Shown: positions 4,648 through 18,326 of the stretch, piece after piece
Position numbering within the stretch: position 1 is the stretch's first letter
Layout: each line of letters opens with the position of its first letter
DNA from: Deltaproteobacteria bacterium
Lineage (GTDB): Bacteria; JAGRBM01; JAHCIT01
Reading direction: 5' to 3'
Length of the DNA stretch: 20,000 bases
Assembly (NCBI GenBank): GCA_026129095.1
Contig: JAHCIT010000006.1
Span: forward strand, 239,611-259,610
The notes under the pieces: model-generated
Databases searched by the model: none
Seen by the model: the letters and a program-made list of their open reading frames with translations, nothing else
Told to the model about the DNA's origin: nothing
Program-made: the position numbers and the translations under genes

Positions 4648-4720
4648 AGGAACCACAAAACTCCGGACCGGCCTTATTAAGGGTTCCCTGTATATTAGGC
4701 AAATGAAGCAGCCCCGTGCA

Positions 4721-4749
4721 TTTCTTCCGGCGGGAAGCCCCTCTATCCT
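4721..4749 (+). promoter_or_regulatory. Putative sigma70-type promoter of GT-C paralog 1 (TTTCTT-N17-TATCCT)
   Basis: The same architecture is conserved upstream of paralog 2 (6262-6290). The -10-like hexamer ends 11 nt before ATG 4761. Confidence 0.5.
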
Positions 4750-4760
4750 TGTCCCCACAC

Positions 4761-6236
4761 ATGAGGAAGTGGCTTCAACGGGTAGTGGATTTCCTTGAGG
4801 AACTGCTCGACATCCCCTCTTCCGCCTGGAAGTGGCTGGCGCCCACCCTGCTCGTCTCCATCATTGCCCTCGGATGGCTGCTCTACCCGCTGGGGATACA
4901 CGCCGACGACTATCTGGAGGCCCTCACGGCCCGCCGTTCCGGCTGGAAGCAGTTGCTGACCTTCCAGGGAGCCCCAGTTCCGCTGCTGCTGTCGGTGTGG
5001 AAACTGGCCCTCCCATTCAGTGACGGACCGCCGTCAGGCATCCTGAGAGTTGCAGCGGCTACCGTGCACATAATCAATTCGGTCCTGGTTTATGCAGCTC
5101 TGTGTGGCATCTTCTCCAGGTATACGCGGCTCGCGGCGGCTATGACTTTTTTCGCCTATCGCGGCGGCAACTGGGTGCTGCTCTGGGCAGCGACTTTCAA
5201 GGACGCACTAATGACCCTGTTTGTCCTGCTGGCGGTCATCCTGTGGCGGCGCGGGATGGAACACCCACGCTGCCGGCTCTGGGCCAGCCTGCCCGCTGCC
5301 GCCGCCATGATGTGCAAACCCACTGCCATCGTGCTCGCGCCGCTGCTGCTACTCCACCAGCTCTGGATGGAGGACCGCGATAGCTGGACCCTTCGCTTGC
5401 AAAAGGCTGCCGGCGGGCTGCTACTCGTTTCCTCCGTTCTGGGCGCCCTCCTGGCCAATGCGCTTCTCAACCCCGGTATCTGGTCCGGTTACACACCGGG
5501 CCGCGGCCTGCCGGACATCGAATACGCCCCGCTCTATCTGGCCGGAATGTATAGCTACCTGGCGGCTTGGTCCCTGCTGCCGGTCAGTCCAGATCTGGAT
5601 ATCCAGAGCCAATCGTGGCTCGCGGCCTCAGGCTTCATCATCATCTGCGGAATCGCTGCCGCGTTTTTCCGTTTCGACAGGATGGTGAAATGGGGAATTG
5701 CCTGGCATGCCGCCTTCACCGCCCTTCCCCTTTATGCCAACGGAGGCATGCCCTCGCCGCACTATTCCTACGCAGCGGCATTCGGGCTAACGCTGGCAGT
5801 ATTCCGCGCTGGTGGTCTCGTTTACAGGCGGAGCTCAGGTGCCCGGCCGGCCATTCTGGTGGTGGGAATACTCTGGCTGGCGGGCACACTGGTCCATTGG
5901 CCGTCCGATCTGAGGCTTTTTCACCGCATGGGCAAGGCAGGCCAGGATGCACGCCATGTGATCCTGGCTCATAAAGATGACGTGCTGGCATCCGGCAGGG
6001 TATATGCGACGAGCCCACATCCACGCCTGCTCCCGCTTATGACAGTTAACAGCCACCTTTTCGAGTTTGAGCTGGGCAATCCAGTCAGAGTCGTCCACCC
6101 GCAATCGCCCGCCTGTCCGGCAACCGATGGCATTCCCTGCCTGTACCTGGCACATTCAAAAGCCGAGTTAGCCGCCTGCACCAGTAACGCTGCCGATAGC
6201 TGCATGATATGGACGCCCGCCACCCGTAATCCTTAA
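4761..6236 (+). CDS. Multi-pass membrane protein, GT-C-like glycosyltransferase (PMT/ArnT-like architecture), paralog 1
   Basis: About 10 hydrophobic segments, a di-acidic HADDY motif after the first TM, and a soluble C-terminal domain with 4 Cys. Start 4761 gives 491 aa, the same length and register as paralog 2. Confidence 0.7.
   Translation: MRKWLQRVVDFLEELLDIPSSAWKWLAPTLLVSIIALGWLLYPLGIHADDYLEALTARRSGWKQLLTFQGAPVPLLLSVWKLALPFSDGPPSGILRVAAATVHIINSVLVYAALCGIFSRYTRLAAAMTFFAYRGGNWVLLWAATFKDALMTLFVLLAVILWRRGMEHPRCRLWASLPAAAAMMCKPTAIVLAPLLLLHQLWMEDRDSWTLRLQKAAGGLLLVSSVLGALLANALLNPGIWSGYTPGRGLPDIEYAPLYLAGMYSYLAAWSLLPVSPDLDIQSQSWLAASGFIIICGIAAAFFRFDRMVKWGIAWHAAFTALPLYANGGMPSPHYSYAAAFGLTLAVFRAGGLVYRRSSGARPAILVVGILWLAGTLVHWPSDLRLFHRMGKAGQDARHVILAHKDDVLASGRVYATSPHPRLLPLMTVNSHLFEFELGNPVRVVHPQSPACPATDGIPCLYLAHSKAELAACTSNAADSCMIWTPATRNP
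5211..5481 (+). repeat. 271-bp perfect direct repeat, copy 1 (copy 2 at 6756-7026)
   Basis: Base-by-base comparison from atgaccctgtttgtc... to ...aaccccggtatct shows no mismatch; offset 1545 bp. Confidence 0.95.
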
Positions 6237-9545: not shown

Positions 9546-9575
9546 TTGACAGCGGTTCCATAACTGCCCTATATT
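9546..9575 (+). promoter_or_regulatory. Sigma70 promoter of the parA-like operon
   Basis: Perfect -35 TTGACA (9546-9551), 18-nt spacer, -10 TATATT (9570-9575), 52 nt upstream of ATG 9628. Confidence 0.7.
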
Positions 9576-9627: not shown

Positions 9628-10767
9628 ATGAAATCCGGCACAGCAATCAAGCCATCTCTCCGGACCTGCAGCGTCTGCGGTAAGCCCTTTGAACTCCAGT
9701 TCAGCTTCCAGCATCGAACCGAAGACGGCGCCGAACATTACTACTGCAGTTCGGCGTGCCTGCTCGAAGAATCTTCCACTGGTCCGAAACTGATCGATGT
9801 CGACACCGGAGAGCCGGTTTCCACCCGCGACGACAGCTCCGTGCAGTGCGATCACTGCAAGCGCCAGTTCAAGATTGCCTACCTTGGCCAGCTGGTCGTG
9901 GCGGGTTCCAGAACTCGCCGCGTGTGCAGCCCTGAATGTCGCGCCGCCATAGTGAAAACCGTCACGTCGAAACACCGGGTCCACCGGATCGCGGTGATGA
10001 ACCAGAAGGGCGGCACCGGAAAAACGACAACCTCGGTCACCTTGGCAGCGGGCCTTGCCGCGAAAGGTCACCGCGTGCTCCTCGTTGATATGGATTCGCA
10101 GGGGAATGTGGGTGCCTCGCTAGGCGTCCGGGGCGAAAAGTCGATCTATCATGTCCTGATCGACTCCATTCCCCCGCAGGAAGCTTCCGTCCCCGTCCGT
10201 CCCGGCCTTGATGTCATTACATCGGACGAGACAGTCGCCGCTGCCGAGATCCGCCTCGTGAACATGAAGCGCCGCGAGCGTCTCCTCCGCCAACGTCTCG
10301 AAGGTCTGGGCGACTATGACTATGTGGTACTGGACTGCGCACCGAGCCTTTCCATCGTCAACCAGAACGCGCTCACTTTCGCCGAAAGCGTGCTGATCCC
10401 GGTGTCGTGCGACTTCCTCGCCATGTATGGCGTAAAGCAGATACTCCGGACCATCCGCTACGTGCGGGAACAGCTTATGCACCCGATCGAGATACTCGGC
10501 GTCCTGCCCACCTTCTACGATCCGCGCGCACGGATCACCCATGACGTCGTGGCCAGCCTGAAGGACTACTTCAAGGACCAGATGTTCCAGCCAATCCGCG
10601 CAAACTCGAAGCTGAAGGAAGCCCCGTCCTACCGGAAAACCATCTTTGAATACGACCCGAAGTGCCCCTCGGCGCTCGACTACCAGGCCCTGGTAGACAG
10701 CGTGGTGGAGCGCCTCCGGTCCAGAAACGAAAACCCACGCCCGCAAGCTGCGGGCGCTACCGCCTGA
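9628..10767 (+). CDS. ParA/Soj-family ATPase with two N-terminal Cys4 TRASH/MYM-like metal-binding repeats
   Basis: Deviant Walker A NQKGGTGKTT, A' VLLVDMDSQGN, Walker B YVVLDCAPS, LKEAPS. N-terminal C14-x2-C17-x22-C40-x3-C44 and C74-x2-C77-x22-C100-x3-C104. Confidence 0.92.
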   Translation: MKSGTAIKPSLRTCSVCGKPFELQFSFQHRTEDGAEHYYCSSACLLEESSTGPKLIDVDTGEPVSTRDDSSVQCDHCKRQFKIAYLGQLVVAGSRTRRVCSPECRAAIVKTVTSKHRVHRIAVMNQKGGTGKTTTSVTLAAGLAAKGHRVLLVDMDSQGNVGASLGVRGEKSIYHVLIDSIPPQEASVPVRPGLDVITSDETVAAAEIRLVNMKRRERLLRQRLEGLGDYDYVVLDCAPSLSIVNQNALTFAESVLIPVSCDFLAMYGVKQILRTIRYVREQLMHPIEILGVLPTFYDPRARITHDVVASLKDYFKDQMFQPIRANSKLKEAPSYRKTIFEYDPKCPSALDYQALVDSVVERLRSRNENPRPQAAGATA

Positions 10768-10808
10768 GGGCGGCACAACCCCAACCCCCAACGGAGACCC
10801 GAACGCAC

Positions 10809-11099
10809 ATGGAACACAAGAAGCACGAAGCCCTCGCGATGGCGCCCGCCCTGGGACGCAACCCGCTGACCGAAGACGTCATGGAGCGGACCTTTTACCG
10901 GCCTGCGCGTGACGACGGCGAGGACAAGCCCACCCATTACAAGATCGTGTCAATCTCCTTGTACCTTGAGGACATCGATCTGCTGAACCGGATGGTCGCC
11001 GATCTCAAGGCCAAGGGGCATACCAAGGCGAACAAAAGCGCGCTCATTCGCGCCGCCCTGCGCCAGTGCGATCTGGACAAGGTGCCGAAGAACATCTGA
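10809..11099 (+). CDS. Small ParA-associated protein (96 aa), predicted ribbon-helix-helix C-terminal domain
   Basis: GGAG upstream of ATG 10809. Pattern YKIVSISLY (strand)-LEDIDLLNRMVADLK (helix)-NKSALIRAAL (helix). Lies 41 nt downstream of parA on the same strand. Confidence 0.75.
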   Translation: MEHKKHEALAMAPALGRNPLTEDVMERTFYRPARDDGEDKPTHYKIVSISLYLEDIDLLNRMVADLKAKGHTKANKSALIRAALRQCDLDKVPKNI

Positions 11100-11141: not shown

Positions 11142-11173
11142 AATGCCCGGTTCCCGAACGGGGGCCGGGCATT
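11142..11173. terminator. Stem-loop between convergent genes, likely bidirectional terminator
   Basis: AATGCCCGGTTCCC-GAAC-GGGGGCCGGGCATT, a 14-bp stem including two G-U pairs on the + strand. Confidence 0.7.
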
Positions 11174-11190: not shown

Positions 11191-11511
11191 TTACTGCTTG
11201 ATGGCCGCGTCAACGAGCTTCTTCAGCTCGCCGCTGGAATACAGTTCACGGGTAATATCACAACCGCCAACGAACTGGCCGTCGATGTAAAGCTGCGGGA
11301 TAGTCGGCCAGTTTGAATACCGCTTGATGCCTTCACGGATATCCATGTCCTCAAGAACGTCCACTGTCTCGAACGGGATTTCCATGCGGCGGAGAATATC
11401 CACCACCGTCGCTGAAAAACCGCACATCGGCATCAGCTTGTTCCCTTTCATGAACAGGACCACCTTGTTGTTCTTGACCATCGCGTCAATCTTCTGCTGT
11501 GCGTCTGACAT
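11191..11511 (-). CDS. grxD: Monothiol glutaredoxin Grx4
   Basis: VVLFMKG...PMCGFS, IK.YSNWPTIPQLYI.G.FVGGCDI; AGGA SD. Confidence 0.97.
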   Translation of the reverse strand: MSDAQQKIDAMVKNNKVVLFMKGNKLMPMCGFSATVVDILRRMEIPFETVDVLEDMDIREGIKRYSNWPTIPQLYIDGQFVGGCDITRELYSSGELKKLVDAAIKQ

Positions 11512-11577: not shown

Positions 11578-11817
11578 TCAGGCCGGGGCCTGCGTTTTCA
11601 GCGCCAGAGCATGCAACGGCGCCCCCGGTCCAGCCATCAGGTCCGAAAGGGACTTGTACACCCGTTGATGCTGCTGGACCATCGACAAGCTTCGAAACTG
11701 CTCGGCGGTCACATGGACACTGAAATGATCACCACCTCCGGTGGTATCCTCCACTATGACACTGGCACCGGGCAGTTCCGCCTCGATCCGCCGCCTGATT
11801 TCTGCAGGGTTCACCAT
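11578..11817 (-). CDS. bolA: BolA/IbaG family protein
   Basis: VEDTTGGGDHFSVHV.AEQF..LSMVQQHQRVY..L...LHALALKT. Start at ATG 11817 (79 aa) downstream of GGAGG; canonical synteny with grxD. Confidence 0.93.
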   Translation of the reverse strand: MVNPAEIRRRIEAELPGASVIVEDTTGGGDHFSVHVTAEQFRSLSMVQQHQRVYKSLSDLMAGPGAPLHALALKTQAPA

Positions 11818-12023
11818 AATACTGCCACCGGCCTCCAATTTAACCGATCGTCGGCAGAAGTGATATCCAGTCGGACAGGAATAATGGCTGCCGGATGCCC
11901 ATTTGAATAAATCCCTGGCAGGCCGGGGAAAAGGGGTATCATGCAAATCACAGACACAGGGAGCCGGGGAGCTTATGTTCGGAACACTGGAAACCCCGGT
12001 CAGCCAAGTCTAAAGGAGCGCCC

Positions 12024-12638
12024 TTGAAAGCATACCACCTGCTGTTCGCCGCCATCGCTTTTCTCGCCATTCTCGTCATCCCCGCCGCTTCCCAGCCAAA
12101 ACGGGCCGGGACCATTGCCCTTGTTAATGGCCGGGTGATCGTGACGTCCAGGGGCGTCACTTTCCCGGCGGAACCCGGTTCGCCCGTCTATGAGGGCGAC
12201 AGGATACGGTCGTTCAATCCGGGCAAGGCGAAAATCGTCTTTACCGATGATACGATCATCAACATTGGCCGTGATACGGAGTTCGAGATCAAAACGGCCA
12301 GTTTCAGCCTTTTCCGGCGGGATTCGTCTTTCGATGTATTTCGGGGCCGCTTCAAGGTGGCCGTCGGCAAGCTCTTCACCGGCACCAGCCAGTTCGAACT
12401 GCGCACTCCCACCGTCGTCACTGGCGTCCGGGGGACCGTATTCTGGGGCGACACGGAACTGGATGCCATGTGCGCGCTGCAGGGGGAGATAGAGGTGACG
12501 CCGGTCTCGAACCCCTCCGCCCGGCAGTATCTCAAGGATGGCCAGTGTGCCGCTGGCTACAAGGGCGGGAACCCTGCCGCCATTTCGCCGACCGCCGAAG
12601 CAGTCCGCGGATATATTGACGAGGTAACGCCGGAGTAA
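12024..12638 (+). CDS. Secreted/membrane-anchored FecR-domain protein
   Basis: TTG start after AAGGAG; N-terminal signal peptide; GD.I.S....A.I.F.D.T.I.IG..T and FELRTPTVVTGVRGTVF; 204 aa. Confidence 0.85.
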   Translation: MKAYHLLFAAIAFLAILVIPAASQPKRAGTIALVNGRVIVTSRGVTFPAEPGSPVYEGDRIRSFNPGKAKIVFTDDTIINIGRDTEFEIKTASFSLFRRDSSFDVFRGRFKVAVGKLFTGTSQFELRTPTVVTGVRGTVFWGDTELDAMCALQGEIEVTPVSNPSARQYLKDGQCAAGYKGGNPAAISPTAEAVRGYIDEVTPE

Positions 12639-13751: not shown

Positions 13752-15533
13752 ATGGAACCTTCACCGGACACCACCCGGCTGGAAGCGGAACTCCGCCGCA
13801 AGCAGCATGTCATCGATTCGATGCGCGAGATCGGCCGTGCCCTTTCGTCCACGCTCTCCACCAACACACTGCTTGCCCTCATCATGGACCGGACAATCAG
13901 CCTCATGGACGCCGATCGCTCGACCCTGTTCGTCGTTGACCATGCGAAGAAGGAACTCTGGTCGCTCATCGCCCAGGGCGAGAACGTAAAGGAAATCCGC
14001 CTTCCCATCGGGAAAGGGATCGCCGGTTACGTTGCCGCCACGGGCGAGACGATCAACATCCCCGATGCCTACCAGGATGCCCGTTTCAATCCCGAAGTAG
14101 ACCGGCAGACCGGCTATCGCACACGCAACATCCTGTGCATGCCGCTCAGGGACCACAACGAAAACGTGATGGCGGTGCTCCAGGTGCTGAACAAGCGTAC
14201 AGGCCCCTTCACTCGTGAGGACGAGGAGCTTCTCGACGCCCTTGGATTTCAGGCATCCATAAGCCTCCAGAACTCCCGGCTCTATGCGGATCTCGAAGTC
14301 CGGAACGCGGAACTCAGGCAGACCCACGCCGGCCTCCAGCAGAAGATGGCCGAGCTGGACATGCTGTTTGAGCTGGAACGGATGATTTCCAGCGCCGCCA
14401 GTCTCGAAACCCTGCTCGACTCGGTGATGGAACGCACCACCCGGTTTGTCGGAGGTCAGGCAGGAAGCATCCTGCTGATCGAGGAAGACACCAACAACCT
14501 GTTCTTCAAGACGGCCCTGGGAGACAAGGCAGCCGAGGTAAAGAAGTTCAAGGTCCCGGTCGGTGAAGGCATCGCCGGCTGGGTCGCCAAGAACGGGGAG
14601 CCGCTCCTCGTTTCGGATGCCTATCTTGACGACCGGTTCCGCCGGGATATTGCCGATGCCATCGGCTTTCCCACACACAGCATTATCTGCGTGCCCCTGA
14701 AGGCCGAAGGGAGAACCATCGGCGCGCTAGAGATCATCAACAAGAATACGGATGTTTCGGCCGGCGGAACGCGGGCCTTCGACAAGGAGGATGTGAAGCT
14801 CCTCACGCTGATCTCCGGACAGGTGGCCAAGGCCATACATCTTACCCAGTTGCGCGAGCGGGAGGCCAAGTCCCAGCGGCTTGCCACCGTTGGCCGTGCC
14901 GTCTCCGGCCTGATCCACGACATGCAGACACCCATGACCTCCATCGTCGGGTTTGTCGAGCTCATGGCCCTCCAGGATACCTCGGACAAGGACCGCGAGG
15001 AGTTCGCCGGAATCGTCCGCCGCGAGGTCGAGCGGCTGACCCAGATGATCCGTGCCCAGCTCGATTTCGTGAAGGGCAAGTCTGACGTGCTCCTGAAACG
15101 GGTGGGGCTCGGAACGCTGATCAACGAGATCGTCTATTTTCTGGAGAAGGAGTTTGGCGAAGCCGGCATCCGCATCGAAACGGATCTCGCCTACAAGGGC
15201 AACATCCACATAGACGAGTCAAAGATCAAGAGAGCCATCTTCAATCTGGCCAAGAACGCCAAGGAAGCGATGCCCGGCGGCGGGAAGTTCATGATACGCA
15301 GCCGCGACGACGGCAGCCATATCATCATCGAGTTTGCCGACACCGGCTCCGGGATTCCGGCCGATATCCGCGACAAGGTGTTCGGTGAATTCGTCACCCA
15401 CGGCAAGGAACACGGCACCGGTCTTGGCCTTGCCCAGGTCAAGCGCACCATCGACGAGCACAAAGGCGAAATCGGTTTCAGCAGCGAGATGGGCAAAGGG
15501 ACCACGTTTACCATCAGGCTGCCGAAGGGCTGA
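13752..15533 (+). CDS. Cytoplasmic sensor histidine kinase, GAF-GAF-HisKA-HATPase
   Basis: Two GAF domains (GIAG.VA..GE...., L....NK....F...D); H-box LIHDMQTPM; N-box NLAKNAKEAM; G1 DTGSGI; G2 GTGLGL; G3 GKGTTF. No TM segment. Confidence 0.95.
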   Translation: MEPSPDTTRLEAELRRKQHVIDSMREIGRALSSTLSTNTLLALIMDRTISLMDADRSTLFVVDHAKKELWSLIAQGENVKEIRLPIGKGIAGYVAATGETINIPDAYQDARFNPEVDRQTGYRTRNILCMPLRDHNENVMAVLQVLNKRTGPFTREDEELLDALGFQASISLQNSRLYADLEVRNAELRQTHAGLQQKMAELDMLFELERMISSAASLETLLDSVMERTTRFVGGQAGSILLIEEDTNNLFFKTALGDKAAEVKKFKVPVGEGIAGWVAKNGEPLLVSDAYLDDRFRRDIADAIGFPTHSIICVPLKAEGRTIGALEIINKNTDVSAGGTRAFDKEDVKLLTLISGQVAKAIHLTQLREREAKSQRLATVGRAVSGLIHDMQTPMTSIVGFVELMALQDTSDKDREEFAGIVRREVERLTQMIRAQLDFVKGKSDVLLKRVGLGTLINEIVYFLEKEFGEAGIRIETDLAYKGNIHIDESKIKRAIFNLAKNAKEAMPGGGKFMIRSRDDGSHIIIEFADTGSGIPADIRDKVFGEFVTHGKEHGTGLGLAQVKRTIDEHKGEIGFSSEMGKGTTFTIRLPKG

Positions 15534-15539
15534 GGCTTT

Positions 15540-16328
15540 TCATCCCGCCGCTTCCAGCGGAACGATCTGAAGCCCGGCACCGGCGGAATCCCTGTCCACG
15601 CGGGCCCGGACGCCAAAATACCGGGAGAGATTTTCCGGTGTGATGACTTCCACCGGGCTGCCGCTGGCGGCGATCTTTCCACCAGAGACGAGCAGCAACC
15701 GGTCGCAATACCTCGAAGCCAGTGCCAGATCATGGACGGCAAGCAGGACCCCGCGCCCTTCCCCGGCCAGTCCCCGGACTATTCGCATGGCCTCAAGCTG
15801 GTGCACCAGGTCCAGGTTCGACGTGGGTTCATCAAGCACCAGAAGCCGGGGGTTCTGGGCGATGGCACGGGCGATGAATACCCTCTGGCGCTCGCCGCCG
15901 GACAGCTCGTTTACCGGCCGGTGGGCGAGATGCTCCGTCTCCGTCACCTTCATCGCCAGATTGATCCTGTCAATATCCTCCGGTCCTTCCACGGCAAAAC
16001 GGCCGAGGTAGGGAAAGCGGCCCATTCCGACCACTTCGCGGACCGTGAAGGCAAAGGCAACGGCTGCCTCCTGCGGAACAAAGGCGGCGCGGCGGGCGAT
16101 CTCCCGACGGGACAGGGTTTCGAGGCTGTCGCCACAGAGGCTGATTCCCCCTTTCCAAGGAACCAGCGCGCCCACTGCCAGTTGCAGGACCGTCGATTTG
16201 CCGCTCCCATTCGGCCCGATCAGGGCAACGGTCTCGGACGGTCTGACGGAAAGGGACACTTCTTCCACGACCGGACTGTCGTGGTAGCCGAACGACACTT
16301 TATTCAGCTCAAGCAGATGGGCAGTCAT
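15540..16328 (-). CDS. Cobalamin/heme/Fe-siderophore ABC transporter ATPase (BtuD/FecE/HmuV-like)
   Basis: Walker A GPNGSGKS, signature LSGGERQR, LVLDEPTSNLD, H-loop VHDL. Confidence 0.95.
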   Translation of the reverse strand: MTAHLLELNKVSFGYHDSPVVEEVSLSVRPSETVALIGPNGSGKSTVLQLAVGALVPWKGGISLCGDSLETLSRREIARRAAFVPQEAAVAFAFTVREVVGMGRFPYLGRFAVEGPEDIDRINLAMKVTETEHLAHRPVNELSGGERQRVFIARAIAQNPRLLVLDEPTSNLDLVHQLEAMRIVRGLAGEGRGVLLAVHDLALASRYCDRLLLVSGGKIAASGSPVEVITPENLSRYFGVRARVDRDSAGAGLQIVPLEAAG

Positions 16329-16332
16329 GCGG

Positions 16333-17361
16333 CTATATCCCCAGCCCTCTCCGCTTCCGGATCAGGAGCCAGATGAACACCGGACCGCCGATCACTGCCG
16401 TCAGGATGCCGAGCTGGAGTTCTTCGGGCGGCATGACTAGGCGGCAGCCGATATCGGCCATGGCGAGAAACGCTCCGCCCCAAAGGGCGGCGGCCGGGAG
16501 CAGGTACCGGTGAGCGGGGCCAAGGCTCAGGCGGAGCATGTGAGGTACCACAAGCCCTACGAAGCCGATCGGCCCGGCGACAGCCACCGTGGCCCCCGTG
16601 ACCGCAGCCGTGGCGGCGATGAGGTACAGGCGGACACGGGGCACGTCCACCCCGACCGCCCAGGCCTGCGTCTCGCCCAGGACCAGTGCATCGAGATCCC
16701 GGGCGAAGACGAGGATCACGGCCACGCCCGCCAGCGCCGGGGGGAGCATCATGCGGAGATGATCCCAGTTCCGGCCGGAGAGGCCGCCCATCGTCCAGCT
16801 CAGTATCTGTGATGCCACCTGCCAGTTGGCGAGCGACACCGAGATGATGAACGACGTCGCCGCCACGCAGATGACCCCGATGGCAACACCCGCCAGCAGC
16901 AGGATGCCGGTATCCACCCGCCCGCGGCGGGCCGTCAGCGCATAGACGGTCCAGATTGCGCCCATCCCCCCCACGAAGCTCATGAAGGGCAGCATCCACA
17001 CTGACCAGGCGGCAAGGCCGCTATAGATCGCCACGACACCGCCCAGCGCCGACCCTGACGAGACGCCCAGGATGCCGGGTTCGGCCAGCGGGTTGCGGAA
17101 AAAACCCTGCATGGCGGCACCCGCCACCGCGAGTCCGCCGCCCACGGCGAGCGCCAGCAGCGTCCGTGGCAGCCGCACCGACAGGACGACCGTCTCCTGC
17201 CACGGCTTCCAGAACGGCTCCACCGGCAGGCCCATCCCCCGGCCCAGAATCGCCGCCACCGAACCGAGGCCGATATCCGCGGCCCCGAACAGGAGACCCA
17301 GGAGGAGCGCCCCCACCGCGGCGGCCCCGCCGGCCAGCAGATACCCCGTGCCCCGGTTCAT
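16333..17361 (-). CDS. FecCD/BtuC-family ABC permease
   Basis: RLPR, Q.FFRNPLAEPGILGVS.G, LGE..A..VGV, GPIGFVGLVVPH; ATGA overlap with the upstream binding-protein gene. Confidence 0.96.
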   Translation of the reverse strand: MNRGTGYLLAGGAAAVGALLLGLLFGAADIGLGSVAAILGRGMGLPVEPFWKPWQETVVLSVRLPRTLLALAVGGGLAVAGAAMQGFFRNPLAEPGILGVSSGSALGGVVAIYSGLAAWSVWMLPFMSFVGGMGAIWTVYALTARRGRVDTGILLLAGVAIGVICVAATSFIISVSLANWQVASQILSWTMGGLSGRNWDHLRMMLPPALAGVAVILVFARDLDALVLGETQAWAVGVDVPRVRLYLIAATAAVTGATVAVAGPIGFVGLVVPHMLRLSLGPAHRYLLPAAALWGGAFLAMADIGCRLVMPPEELQLGILTAVIGGPVFIWLLIRKRRGLGI

Positions 17362-18326
17362 TCGGTGAATGCTTCCGGGTGCAGGACGCGGGCCACGCCT
17401 TCGACACCGGACGCCACGTGGTGCGAGAGGTTGATGAGTTCCCTGTCCAGGATTGTGTAAACGCGGCCCGTCCGGACGGCGCCCACCTCCCGCCAGTCCG
17501 GGTTCTTCAGGTACCGGTCCCGGACCACCGCATCGTCTCCGTCACCGTAGCGGGAGAGCAGGATCACATCGGGATCGAGGGCGATAGCGGCCTCGTGCGC
17601 GAGCCGCCGGACCCCGTTAATACCCGCCTCGGTGGCGGCGACGTTGGTTCCGCCCGAACGGTTAATAATGTCATCGATGGTGGTTCCCCGGCCATGCGTG
17701 GTGCTGTCTCCCATGAAGTAGAGAACCCGCGGGCGCGGAAGGCCGGCGACCCGCCGGGCGACGTCTTCCAGCCGGCTGTCGAATGTGGAAACCAGCGCTT
17801 CGCCCCTATCTACATCTCCCGTCGCCAGGGCGATGAGCCGGAGGTTCCTTCGCACGTCATCGATGGCGTTGTAGCCGCTCAAGTACAGCACCGGGATCCC
17901 GGACTGGGCCATGAACCGCACGAAGCTGGTTTCCGTGTAGGCGGATGCCAGCAGGAGGTCCGGCTCCAGAGAGAGGATCTGCTCAGGGTCGTCGTCCACC
18001 AGCGTCACCCCCGGCGGCACACGGTCCACACAGTTCGACGATACCGGATCGGTGGAAAAATAGGTCAGCCCCGCGAGCCGCCCCGGAGCGGCGATTTCGG
18101 TCAGGATTTCATCCCCCAAAAGGACCATGGACACGATCCGCTGCGGCATGGCCGGAATGACCTGCATGTCCCCCGCAGGGCCGGTGAGCGCGAGGGGATA
18201 GCCGCTGCCTTCGATACGGCTCCCCTCCAGCGGGCTTGCACCCACCATCGGCGCCCGGACCGAACGGGCCCATGAAACGCCTGTTCCGAATGCCGCCGCG
18301 AGCAGCAGGATCACCGCAAACCGCAC
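17358..18326 (-). CDS. Periplasmic binding protein, BtuF/HmuT/FecB-like (Peripla_BP_2)
   Basis: GTG start with GAGGT SD; signal peptide; PQRIVS, EQILSLEPDLLL, GGTNVA, LDPDVILL, AVRTGRVY. Confidence 0.92.
   Translation of the reverse strand: MRFAVILLLAAAFGTGVSWARSVRAPMVGASPLEGSRIEGSGYPLALTGPAGDMQVIPAMPQRIVSMVLLGDEILTEIAAPGRLAGLTYFSTDPVSSNCVDRVPPGVTLVDDDPEQILSLEPDLLLASAYTETSFVRFMAQSGIPVLYLSGYNAIDDVRRNLRLIALATGDVDRGEALVSTFDSRLEDVARRVAGLPRPRVLYFMGDSTTHGRGTTIDDIINRSGGTNVAATEAGINGVRRLAHEAAIALDPDVILLSRYGDGDDAVVRDRYLKNPDWREVGAVRTGRVYTILDRELINLSHHVASGVEGVARVLHPEAFTE

Follow-up and report, generated by a model that had tools for sequence, protein, structure and literature searches.

The DNA analysed here, referred to as the window, comprises 20,000 nucleotides (nt) and corresponds to positions 239611-259610 of contig C20 of genome G000, a 3.67-Mb genome in 23 contigs that is rated 96.65% complete. 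Its central feature is a pair of neighbouring genes on the + strand. The first gene (9628-10767, 379 residues) encodes a ParA-family ATPase with an N-terminal domain composed of two Cys4 fingers, as judged from Pfam, PDB matches, and alignment. The second gene (10809-11099, 96 residues counted from the ATG) encodes a small protein, termed the partner, which was defined by alignment of its family, a structural model, and the agreement of its start with that of a relative. A first-pass annotation made from the sequence alone had proposed a Soj-type ATPase followed by a 96-residue gene, and the open reading frame (ORF) calls and the Pfam match of the ATPase agree with this proposal. ParA/MinD ATPases are a general bacterial device for the positioning of chromosomes, plasmids, division rings, carboxysomes, and chemoreceptor arrays, and to our knowledge each characterised subfamily is understood via the way in which the ATPase is tied to its cargo. 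The two-gene cassette with twin fingers is widespread in uncultured relatives of the myxobacteria. In the literature searched we found no description of a ParA protein fused to zf-FCS/TRASH fingers, nor of this partner, which is in line with the earlier statement that no characterised member was known.

The ATPase and its twin Cys4 fingers

The ATPase domain comprises residues 116-365 (9973-10722, + strand) and contains the deviant Walker A motif KGGTGKTT (10006-10029). Pfam AAA_31 matched residues 120-288 with an E value of 3e-50 (171 bits, cut-off 27), and a sequence search of the PDB returned solved chromosomal ParA/Soj proteins with E values of 8e-53 to 1e-41 over residues 116-370 only, including Soj of Thermus thermophilus (1wcv), Soj of Helicobacter pylori (6iub), and ParA 8ray (8e-53 to 4e-43). 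None of the solved ParA proteins matched the 115-residue twin-finger domain by sequence. Other solved ATPases scored weaker in terms of E-value ranking only (McdA, 3e-11; ParF, 4e-9; MinD, ~1e-7). No NCBIfam model claims the protein, the best one being ParA_partition with 97 bits versus the 180 bits required. In an alignment of 41 members, the residues K127, K132, D154, D156, D236, R300, and R324 were invariant. They cover residues of the Walker A, A′, and B motifs, so that the deviant Walker A with its signature lysine and the Walker A′ and B aspartates are all present.

The DNA-binding residues named for T. thermophilus Soj (TtSoj) in the available part of the source are R182, R194, R208, and R211, with R182 corresponding to R189 of Bacillus subtilis Soj (PMC6393308). 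When the ATPase is aligned to TtSoj, R300 takes the position of R182, K312 that of R194, and K328 that of R211, and the invariant R300 therefore corresponds to R189 of the B. subtilis protein. The first-pass annotation had suggested that the basic residues at the Soj DNA-binding positions are retained, and this holds for three of the four sites. Because of these three residues, non-specific binding of the ATPase to DNA, i.e., to the nucleoid, is plausible.

The ATPase of the window is an orphan. A canonical parA-parB pair is located on contig C12 (parB, 41930-42205; parA, 42292-43095), and this parB is the sole match to ParB_N above the cut-off in the genome. As previously proposed, no ParB, replication, or transposase gene was detected in the window by Pfam analysis of its 18 large ORFs, five of which had no match. 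Three additional orphan ParA-like ORFs were noted in the genome (C17:109184-110188 and C17:247060-247857, both on the - strand, and C23:131399-132244 on the + strand), one of which has an N-terminal extension of 80 residues. The Cys4-ParA of the window is the single ORF in the genome with the finger motif.

Finger 1 (C14, C17, C40, C44; 9667-9759, + strand) and finger 2 (C74, C77, C100, C104; 9847-9939, + strand) both have the pattern C-x2-C-x22-C-x3-C and are offset by exactly 60 residues, as noted before. Pfam zf-FCS matched this region in two stretches with an E value of 6.5e-7 (29.5 bits versus a cut-off of 22.4), the best stretch being residues 12-46 in finger 1 and the second one lying in finger 2. 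Neither the TRASH nor the YHS model of Pfam matched at E ≤ 1. The earlier description as TRASH-like holds in that the fingers are Cys4 modules of a TRASH/zf-FCS-like type. The two-finger architecture is not a chance occurrence, but characterises a conserved family: among the best 120 homologues, seven of which lacked the Walker A pattern and were set aside, two Cys4 motifs were present in 106 of the remaining 113 proteins and one motif in the other seven. Among 17 aligned N-terminal regions and 41 aligned full-length proteins, none deviated at any of the eight cysteines. In these alignments, Q28, Q88, and F81 were likewise invariant, and the aromatic residues F21, F25, and F81 were conserved.

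ATG 9628 is the only ATG, GTG, or TTG codon between the upstream stop codon and the first cysteine. A start downstream of the fingers is ruled out by the invariance of the cysteines across the family, and the gene start assumed before, which includes the repeats, is therefore correct. The spacing between the cysteine pairs ranges from 22 to 29 residues in other members, the starts of the two fingers are ~43 to 160 residues apart, and the linker between them varies from ~10 to >100 residues. The exact 60-residue period, found only in this genus and its sister genus, is therefore a local trait. At L186, L214, L215, and L014, which comprise some Sandaracinaceae loci and one other locus, 410-650 residues precede the Walker A motif in the longest ORF, which reflects either very long linkers or overcalled ORF starts. 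The zf-FCS model matched 20 of 41 members at E ≤ 0.01, and a precomputed zf-FCS label was attached to only 9 of the 120 best homologues. This scarcity of labels explains why the source databases list the homologues simply as "ParA family protein," as had been anticipated.

When the N-terminal 119 residues were modelled with AlphaFold (mean pLDDT, 73.7), each finger consisted of four short strands followed by a helix, the topology of finger 2 being that of finger 1. The best PDB match in a fold search with the fingers was 2das, the TRASH domain of ZMYM5 (E 0.064), followed by archaeal L24e; none of the matches was significant. With these modules of the zf-FCS/MYM and TRASH types, the fingers share the Cys4 pattern, an [FY]-C-S motif ahead of the last cysteine pair, and the zf-FCS match above threshold. 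They differ by being present in two copies fused to a bacterial ParA ATPase and by the additional invariant glutamines Q28 and Q88 and the aromatic residues F21, F25, and F81. We take the fingers to be treble-clef-like, zf-FCS/TRASH-type Cys4 modules that are carried on a variable, basic linker at the N terminus; the net charge of the N-terminal region is positive in 110 of 113 members (median, +6). No short free-standing proteins similar to the fingers emerged from a word-based search, an uninformative outcome, and the ESM Atlas yielded no usable match to the finger region.

The partner protein and the promoter repeat

The ATG start of the partner gene coincides with the start in the sister genus, whose ORF does not extend further upstream. 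An alignment of 26 partner proteins revealed three parts: an N-terminal motif, a variable linker rich in Pro, Ala, and Arg, and a nearly invariant C-terminal half with the consensus PTHYKIVSISLY.EDI..L...V..LK..GHTKANKS.LIR.AL. In the protein encoded in the window, residues 1-32 form a tail with an N-terminal lysine and the motif [DN]P[LF]..[IL][LM]E..FY, with P19 and Y30 being invariant. A lysine or arginine is present within the first eight residues of all 26 partners. Residues 42-88 form a strand-helix-helix unit resembling ribbon-helix-helix (RHH) proteins, in whose strand H43, Y44, and K45 do not vary between phyla. In the structural model, residues 1-15 had pLDDT values of <50 and were followed by a helix (residues 22-28), an extended stretch, and two helices (residues 53-68 and 76-86) with values of >90. 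The C-terminal domain is thus predicted to have RHH topology. This is the part of the earlier proposal of an RHH-like partner that was retained, whereas the RHH_1 model itself matched the partner of the window below the Pfam cut-off (E 0.008; 16.5 versus 20.5 bits). In the Atlas a CopG-family cluster is listed for the partner with a score of 0.91. The protein carries no ParB_N domain, and its family has no Pfam label.

In an exhaustive profile search for the partner family, 697 cluster representatives were obtained at E ≤ 0.001, of which 347 also passed E ≤ 1e-10. The 150 listed representatives are all 61-198 residues long and carry the conserved domain at the C-terminal end. A comparison of the partner tail with the N terminus of the genome's own ParB (KPLGRGLGSLI) was dropped, since only LGR was common to both, and only in this genus. 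The predicted complex of the full-length ATPase with the partner, calculated with alignments, had a score of 0.00, which in a calculation that included no controls says nothing either way.

Upstream of the ATPase gene lies a sigma-70-type promoter (9546-9575, + strand) consisting of TTGACA (9546-9551), an 18-nt spacer, and TATATT (9570-9575), which matches the consensus at 11 of 12 positions. Both hexamers and the spacer between them are shared by four genomes from two genera, whereas the flanking sequence upstream is not conserved. The promoter had been part of the first-pass annotation; the inverted repeat within it is new. This operator-like repeat (9552-9567; arms GCGGTT and AACTGC around CCAT, GCGGTTCCATAACTGC) fills 16 of the 18 spacer bases. 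A consensus, GCRSTT-N4-AASYGC, was derived from the upstream regions of the family and then counted in the same regions over its 12 arm positions. At least 11 matching arm positions were found in 27 of 51 upstream windows of partner-bearing loci, one of which (L185) was a false match on a T-tract, compared to 28 of 924 windows taken from these loci as controls and none of the 18 loci of a clade without partner (described below), with the contrast to the controls being overstated because the consensus was derived from the same sequences. Two loci that are cut off near the ATPase gene had a score of 10. The match of the operator between phyla was not built into the consensus.

Operons of the Polyangia contain a longer repeat, GAAGCACTT-CGAT-AAGTGCTTC. 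At the Polyangia loci with both elements it begins 33-37 nt after a TTTTTTGAC (TTGAC) element, i.e., at about the expected start of transcription. Of the complete genomes tested, a single one (9.07 Mb) carries an exact match at its operon, and it contains no second one elsewhere. Because of its position, its symmetry, and its association with the partner (27/51 versus 0/18), the inverted repeat is probably the operator of the partner. Of the 18 inspected loci of the clade without partner, six (L011, L012, L013, L014, L088, and L096) carry a different perfect palindrome, (T)GCCATATATGGC(A), ahead of the ATPase gene, ~35-60 nt after TTGACA.

Distribution and descent of the cassette

A database search with the ATPase gave 5777 matches among the 8000 candidates scored. 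The ATPase was present in all six species genomes of the phylum to which the genome is assigned in GTDB (E ≤ 1e-120), and no match was obtained in 25 unrelated genomes at E ≤ 1e-60. The genome G000 itself contained a single match at E ≤ 1e-60, showing that canonical ParA proteins miss this threshold. In an evenly drawn sample of 401 genomes of the Myxococcota, the ATPase was found in 148 (E ≤ 1e-75). About a third of the Myxococcota species in the sample, and all genomes of a small sister phylum, thus carry a member of the subfamily. All named loci of the family come from metagenome-assembled genomes, and a pattern-based search, which may have missed some carriers, revealed no cultured one.

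The partner gene follows the ATPase gene at a distance of 30-45 nt in all six genomes of the phylum. In the Myxococcota, where the tables of both proteins were compared by hand, the partner was found in 98 of the 401 genomes. In 91 of these 98 genomes, both genes share a contig and a strand, with the partner located 0-550 nt after the ATPase match. In the case of the other seven, the pair spans the ends of one record (one genome), the two genes lie on different contigs (one genome), or an ATPase match at the threshold is missing (five genomes). Among 105 fetched ATPase loci, several of which are duplicates, the partner was located immediately downstream in 83. Of the other 22 loci, two are cut off no more than 300 nt from the ATPase gene, and 13 of the remaining 20 contain a methyltransferase gene resembling SpoU/TrmL by sequence appearance just downstream, at the usual place of the partner.

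In a quick maximum-likelihood tree of 99 ATPase domains, the family was set apart by a long branch (support, 98) from the outgroup, which consisted of the three other ParA-like proteins of the genome. Within the family, the tree contained a clade of the phylum itself (six members, all with partner), a Polyangia clade of 74 members, in which only the two cut loci are without partner, and a clade of 19 members, 18 of which lack the partner and have kept both fingers. The co-conservation of the two genes thus extends across two phyla, but not to this last clade. On the basis of the distribution of the partner on the tree, the pair is probably ancestral, with the partner having been lost or replaced in one lineage; this direction is deduced from the distribution, as the basal order was not resolved. 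The ATPase tree groups by taxon, the cassette lies on chromosome-sized contigs in other genomes, and a tblastn search of 72,556 plasmid records revealed neither the partner nor the finger region. These data suggest that the cassette is chromosomal and vertically inherited.

Possible function and genomic surroundings

We assume, with a probability of roughly one half, that the two genes form an autoregulated cassette that acts as a ParA-type positioning system. By analogy, it may work like a pair of a ParA protein and its activator, and its layout resembles that of a type Ib partition cassette. The ATP-bound dimer of the ATPase would reside on the nucleoid, as in other ParA/MinD systems, for which both nucleoid-bound dimers and activation by partners are described in the available part of a review (PMC11407121). 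A dimer of the partner would bind to the 16-bp promoter repeat and repress its own operon. The lysine-bearing N-terminal tail of the partner would stimulate the ATPase, as do the tails of ParG, ParB, MinE, and PomX, and the fingers would hold zinc structurally and link the ATPase to its cargo or to another regulator. Since the fingers were kept in the clade that lost the partner, they presumably act independently of it. This fact and the basic character of the N-terminal region suggest that a tether binding cargo or nucleic acid fits better than a sensor, and binding of the cargo via the fingers is possible.

A similar arrangement is known for other orphan ParA-like ATPases, represented by PomXYZ of Myxococcus xanthus, McdAB, ParC, PpfA, and PldP, for which the accessible portions of two accounts describe activation by an N-terminal peptide of the partner, including that of PomX (PMC13170346, PMC11407121). 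PomXYZ occurs in the same phylum as many carriers of the cassette. PomZ is set apart by its description, which in the portion available mentions neither zinc nor cysteine nor an N-terminal extension. For Bdellovibrio, two orphan parA genes with neighbours of unknown function were reported in a paper whose accessible text does not contain the words zinc and cysteine, a comparison of wording and not of sequence. With the chromosomal ParA/Soj proteins, the ATPase shares the domain, the deviant Walker A motif, and the basic residues at three of four DNA-binding positions. The cassette differs from chromosomal ParABS systems in that the ATPase gene is not located beside a parB gene and the partner is a 96-residue RHH-like protein.

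Several observations weigh against this positioning model. Positioning is argued by family resemblance only, because neither a cargo nor a conserved neighbour beyond the partner nor an array of binding sites was found. Clustering of the neighbouring ORFs across the loci of the family revealed nothing conserved besides the partner, except for clade-local synteny such as hut-like genes in the Sandaracinaceae and the SpoU/TrmL-like gene in the clade without partner (both by sequence appearance), and conserved neighbours were therefore rejected as a clue to the cargo. The partner was missing in 55 of the 148 ATPase-bearing Myxococcota genomes and is thus not obligatory. The weak RHH_1 matches obtained for 13 of the 26 partner proteins never reached the Pfam cut-off, and fold and PDB profile searches with the partner gave nothing significant, the top match being the N-terminal domain of TraM (E 3.9). 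In addition to the bias in the counts of the operator, the element was absent or degenerate in 24 of the 51 partner-bearing upstream regions, including those of the sister family of the window, and in five further genomes no site within one mismatch was present at the operon. No centromere-like repeat array surrounds the cassette, which contains a single inverted repeat. Finally, the position of R208 of TtSoj is occupied in the ATPase by A325, which adjoins the invariant R324.

A first alternative, which we consider unlikely, is chromosomal DNA partition of the type Ib kind, in which the partner bound to the promoter repeat would mark the region and the ATPase would move or hold it, forming a second system beside parABS. 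The type Ib pairs ParF-ParG of plasmid TP228 and delta-omega of pSM19035 consist of a Walker-type ATPase followed by a small RHH-like protein with a flexible tail and have a binding site at their own promoter, upstream of parA. In this comparison, which is one of layout and not of sequence, the cassette has the same gene order, with the small protein downstream of the ATPase, and a site at the same place. The invariance of H43, Y44, and K45 of the partner across phyla is expected for a conserved DNA target. The cassette differs from the type Ib pairs in that it has one inverted repeat instead of an iterated centromere, is chromosomal and apparently vertically inherited without plasmid relatives, and encodes an ATPase that is Soj-like rather than ParF-like and has an N-terminal domain. 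In addition, one clade works without the partner.

The distribution of operator-like sites in the genomes likewise argues against partition. The genome G000 contains seven sites with perfect arms compared to ~5 in shuffled sequences and is therefore not enriched in them. The only other GTTCCATAAC site of this genome, at C23:24778, lies within a coding region and was taken as chance. Among the first five genomes inspected, 9 of 45 near-match sites were located within 300 kb of the cassette versus ~3.7 expected, mainly due to two genomes (G274 and G403). Clustering near the cassette was rejected when five other genomes were analysed in a pre-set test, in which only 3 of 40 sites were within this distance versus 4.1 expected. 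In three genomes with large contigs (G274, G403, and G047), the cassette is located at ~0.69-0.81 of the distance between dnaA and the opposite chromosome pole, which could be taken in favour of partition, but comes from a sample too small and too closely related to interpret.

The second alternative, likewise improbable, is a purely regulatory pair in which the partner is an RHH repressor and the ATPase its nucleotide-dependent co-regulator, with the fingers reading an input and nothing being positioned. Such a function would agree with the overlap of operator and promoter, the single site, and the lack of a cargo gene nearby. Precedents would be the antiactivator FleN, which appears among the matches to solved structures, and Soj, which acts on other proteins. 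However, the ATPase still has all of its catalytic residues and the arginine used for non-specific DNA binding, and both the ATPase and the fingers are intact in the clade without partner, which argues for a role of the ATPase beyond assisting this repressor.

The TRASH domain has the cysteine pattern C-x2-C-x(19-22)-C-x3-C. That the fingers are TRASH-type metal or redox sensors switching a positioning ATPase on or off, as the first-pass annotation had proposed, is very improbable, since apart from the similar cysteine spacing and the monothiol-type glutaredoxin and BolA genes adjoining the cassette in the window nothing points to it, zf-FCS but neither TRASH nor YHS of Pfam matched, the fold-match relatives ZMYM5 and L24e are structural zinc modules, no metal-homeostasis gene travels with the cassette, and the glutaredoxin gene lies beside it in only one of three sister-genus genomes (G003, judged by ORF translations), the glutaredoxin/BolA pair not being among the neighbour families recovered across the loci of the ATPase family.

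If the cassette is a positioning system, it might represent a third way, beside MinCDE and PomXYZ, in which Polyangia-type myxobacteria and the small sister phylum position the division site or another cell-cycle structure. The fingers, in place of an adaptor protein, would hold the cargo of the nucleoid-bound ATPase, and the RHH protein would set expression and trigger the ATPase. We regard this extension as speculative and rather unlikely, as it derives from distribution only. The carriers are labelled Myxococcota, Polyangiales, Sandaracinaceae, Polyangiaceae, "Deltaproteobacteria," or unclassified, and the named loci thus lie outside the Cystobacterineae, the only group for which PomXYZ is reported in the available part of the source. 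MinE and MinC were not found in the genome of the window, given its completeness of 96.65%. MinE was present in 61 of the 401 Myxococcota genomes, and the ATPase occurred in 3 of these 61 compared to 145 of the 340 others (compared by hand), but these counts are strongly clade-structured in a sample that seems to interleave a few large taxa, so that they reflect very few independent events and provide a lead only and not evidence for a role in the cell cycle.

The subfamily is large and conserved and has, in its two putative zinc fingers, a candidate attachment module of which we found no description in ParA proteins. It is experimentally tractable owing to its compact partner and its defined DNA site. 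As most of the sampled carriers lack MinE and the named ones lie outside the PomXYZ group, the cargo could show how these bacteria, which have large genomes and a complex development, organise division or another cell-cycle process. The cassette is of interest for the spatial organisation of bacteria, and more so if its cargo proves to be a cell-cycle structure.

Contigs from RNA libraries of four studies cover parts of both genes with 95-100% identity, which indicates presence only and not transcription. The immediate neighbours of the cassette are a divergent gene of the Omp85 family upstream and, convergent with it downstream, the gene of the glutaredoxin family (11191-11511, - strand) and the paired BolA gene (11578-11946, - strand). 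Between the partner and glutaredoxin genes lies a GC-rich hairpin with a 14-bp stem (11142-11173; -40 kcal/mol in a 71-nt stretch, z -5.98). The strong hairpin after the pair was thus recovered as previously described; it has no U-run on the + strand, and a terminator scan flagged the - strand only. The remainder of the window contains housekeeping genes, with those for an acyl-CoA dehydrogenase, an ABC1 kinase, and an ABC importer being more distant, and two ORFs without a Pfam match at E ≤ 0.001 (946-1701, 251 residues, and 4716-6236, 506 residues, both on the + strand). Downstream of the cassette, and without apparent connection to it, the genes for a FecR-domain protein (12024-12638, + strand), a histidine kinase with two GAF domains (13752-15533, + strand), and the importer, composed of FecCD, ABC, and periplasmic binding proteins (15540-18326, - strand), resemble an iron-uptake neighbourhood.

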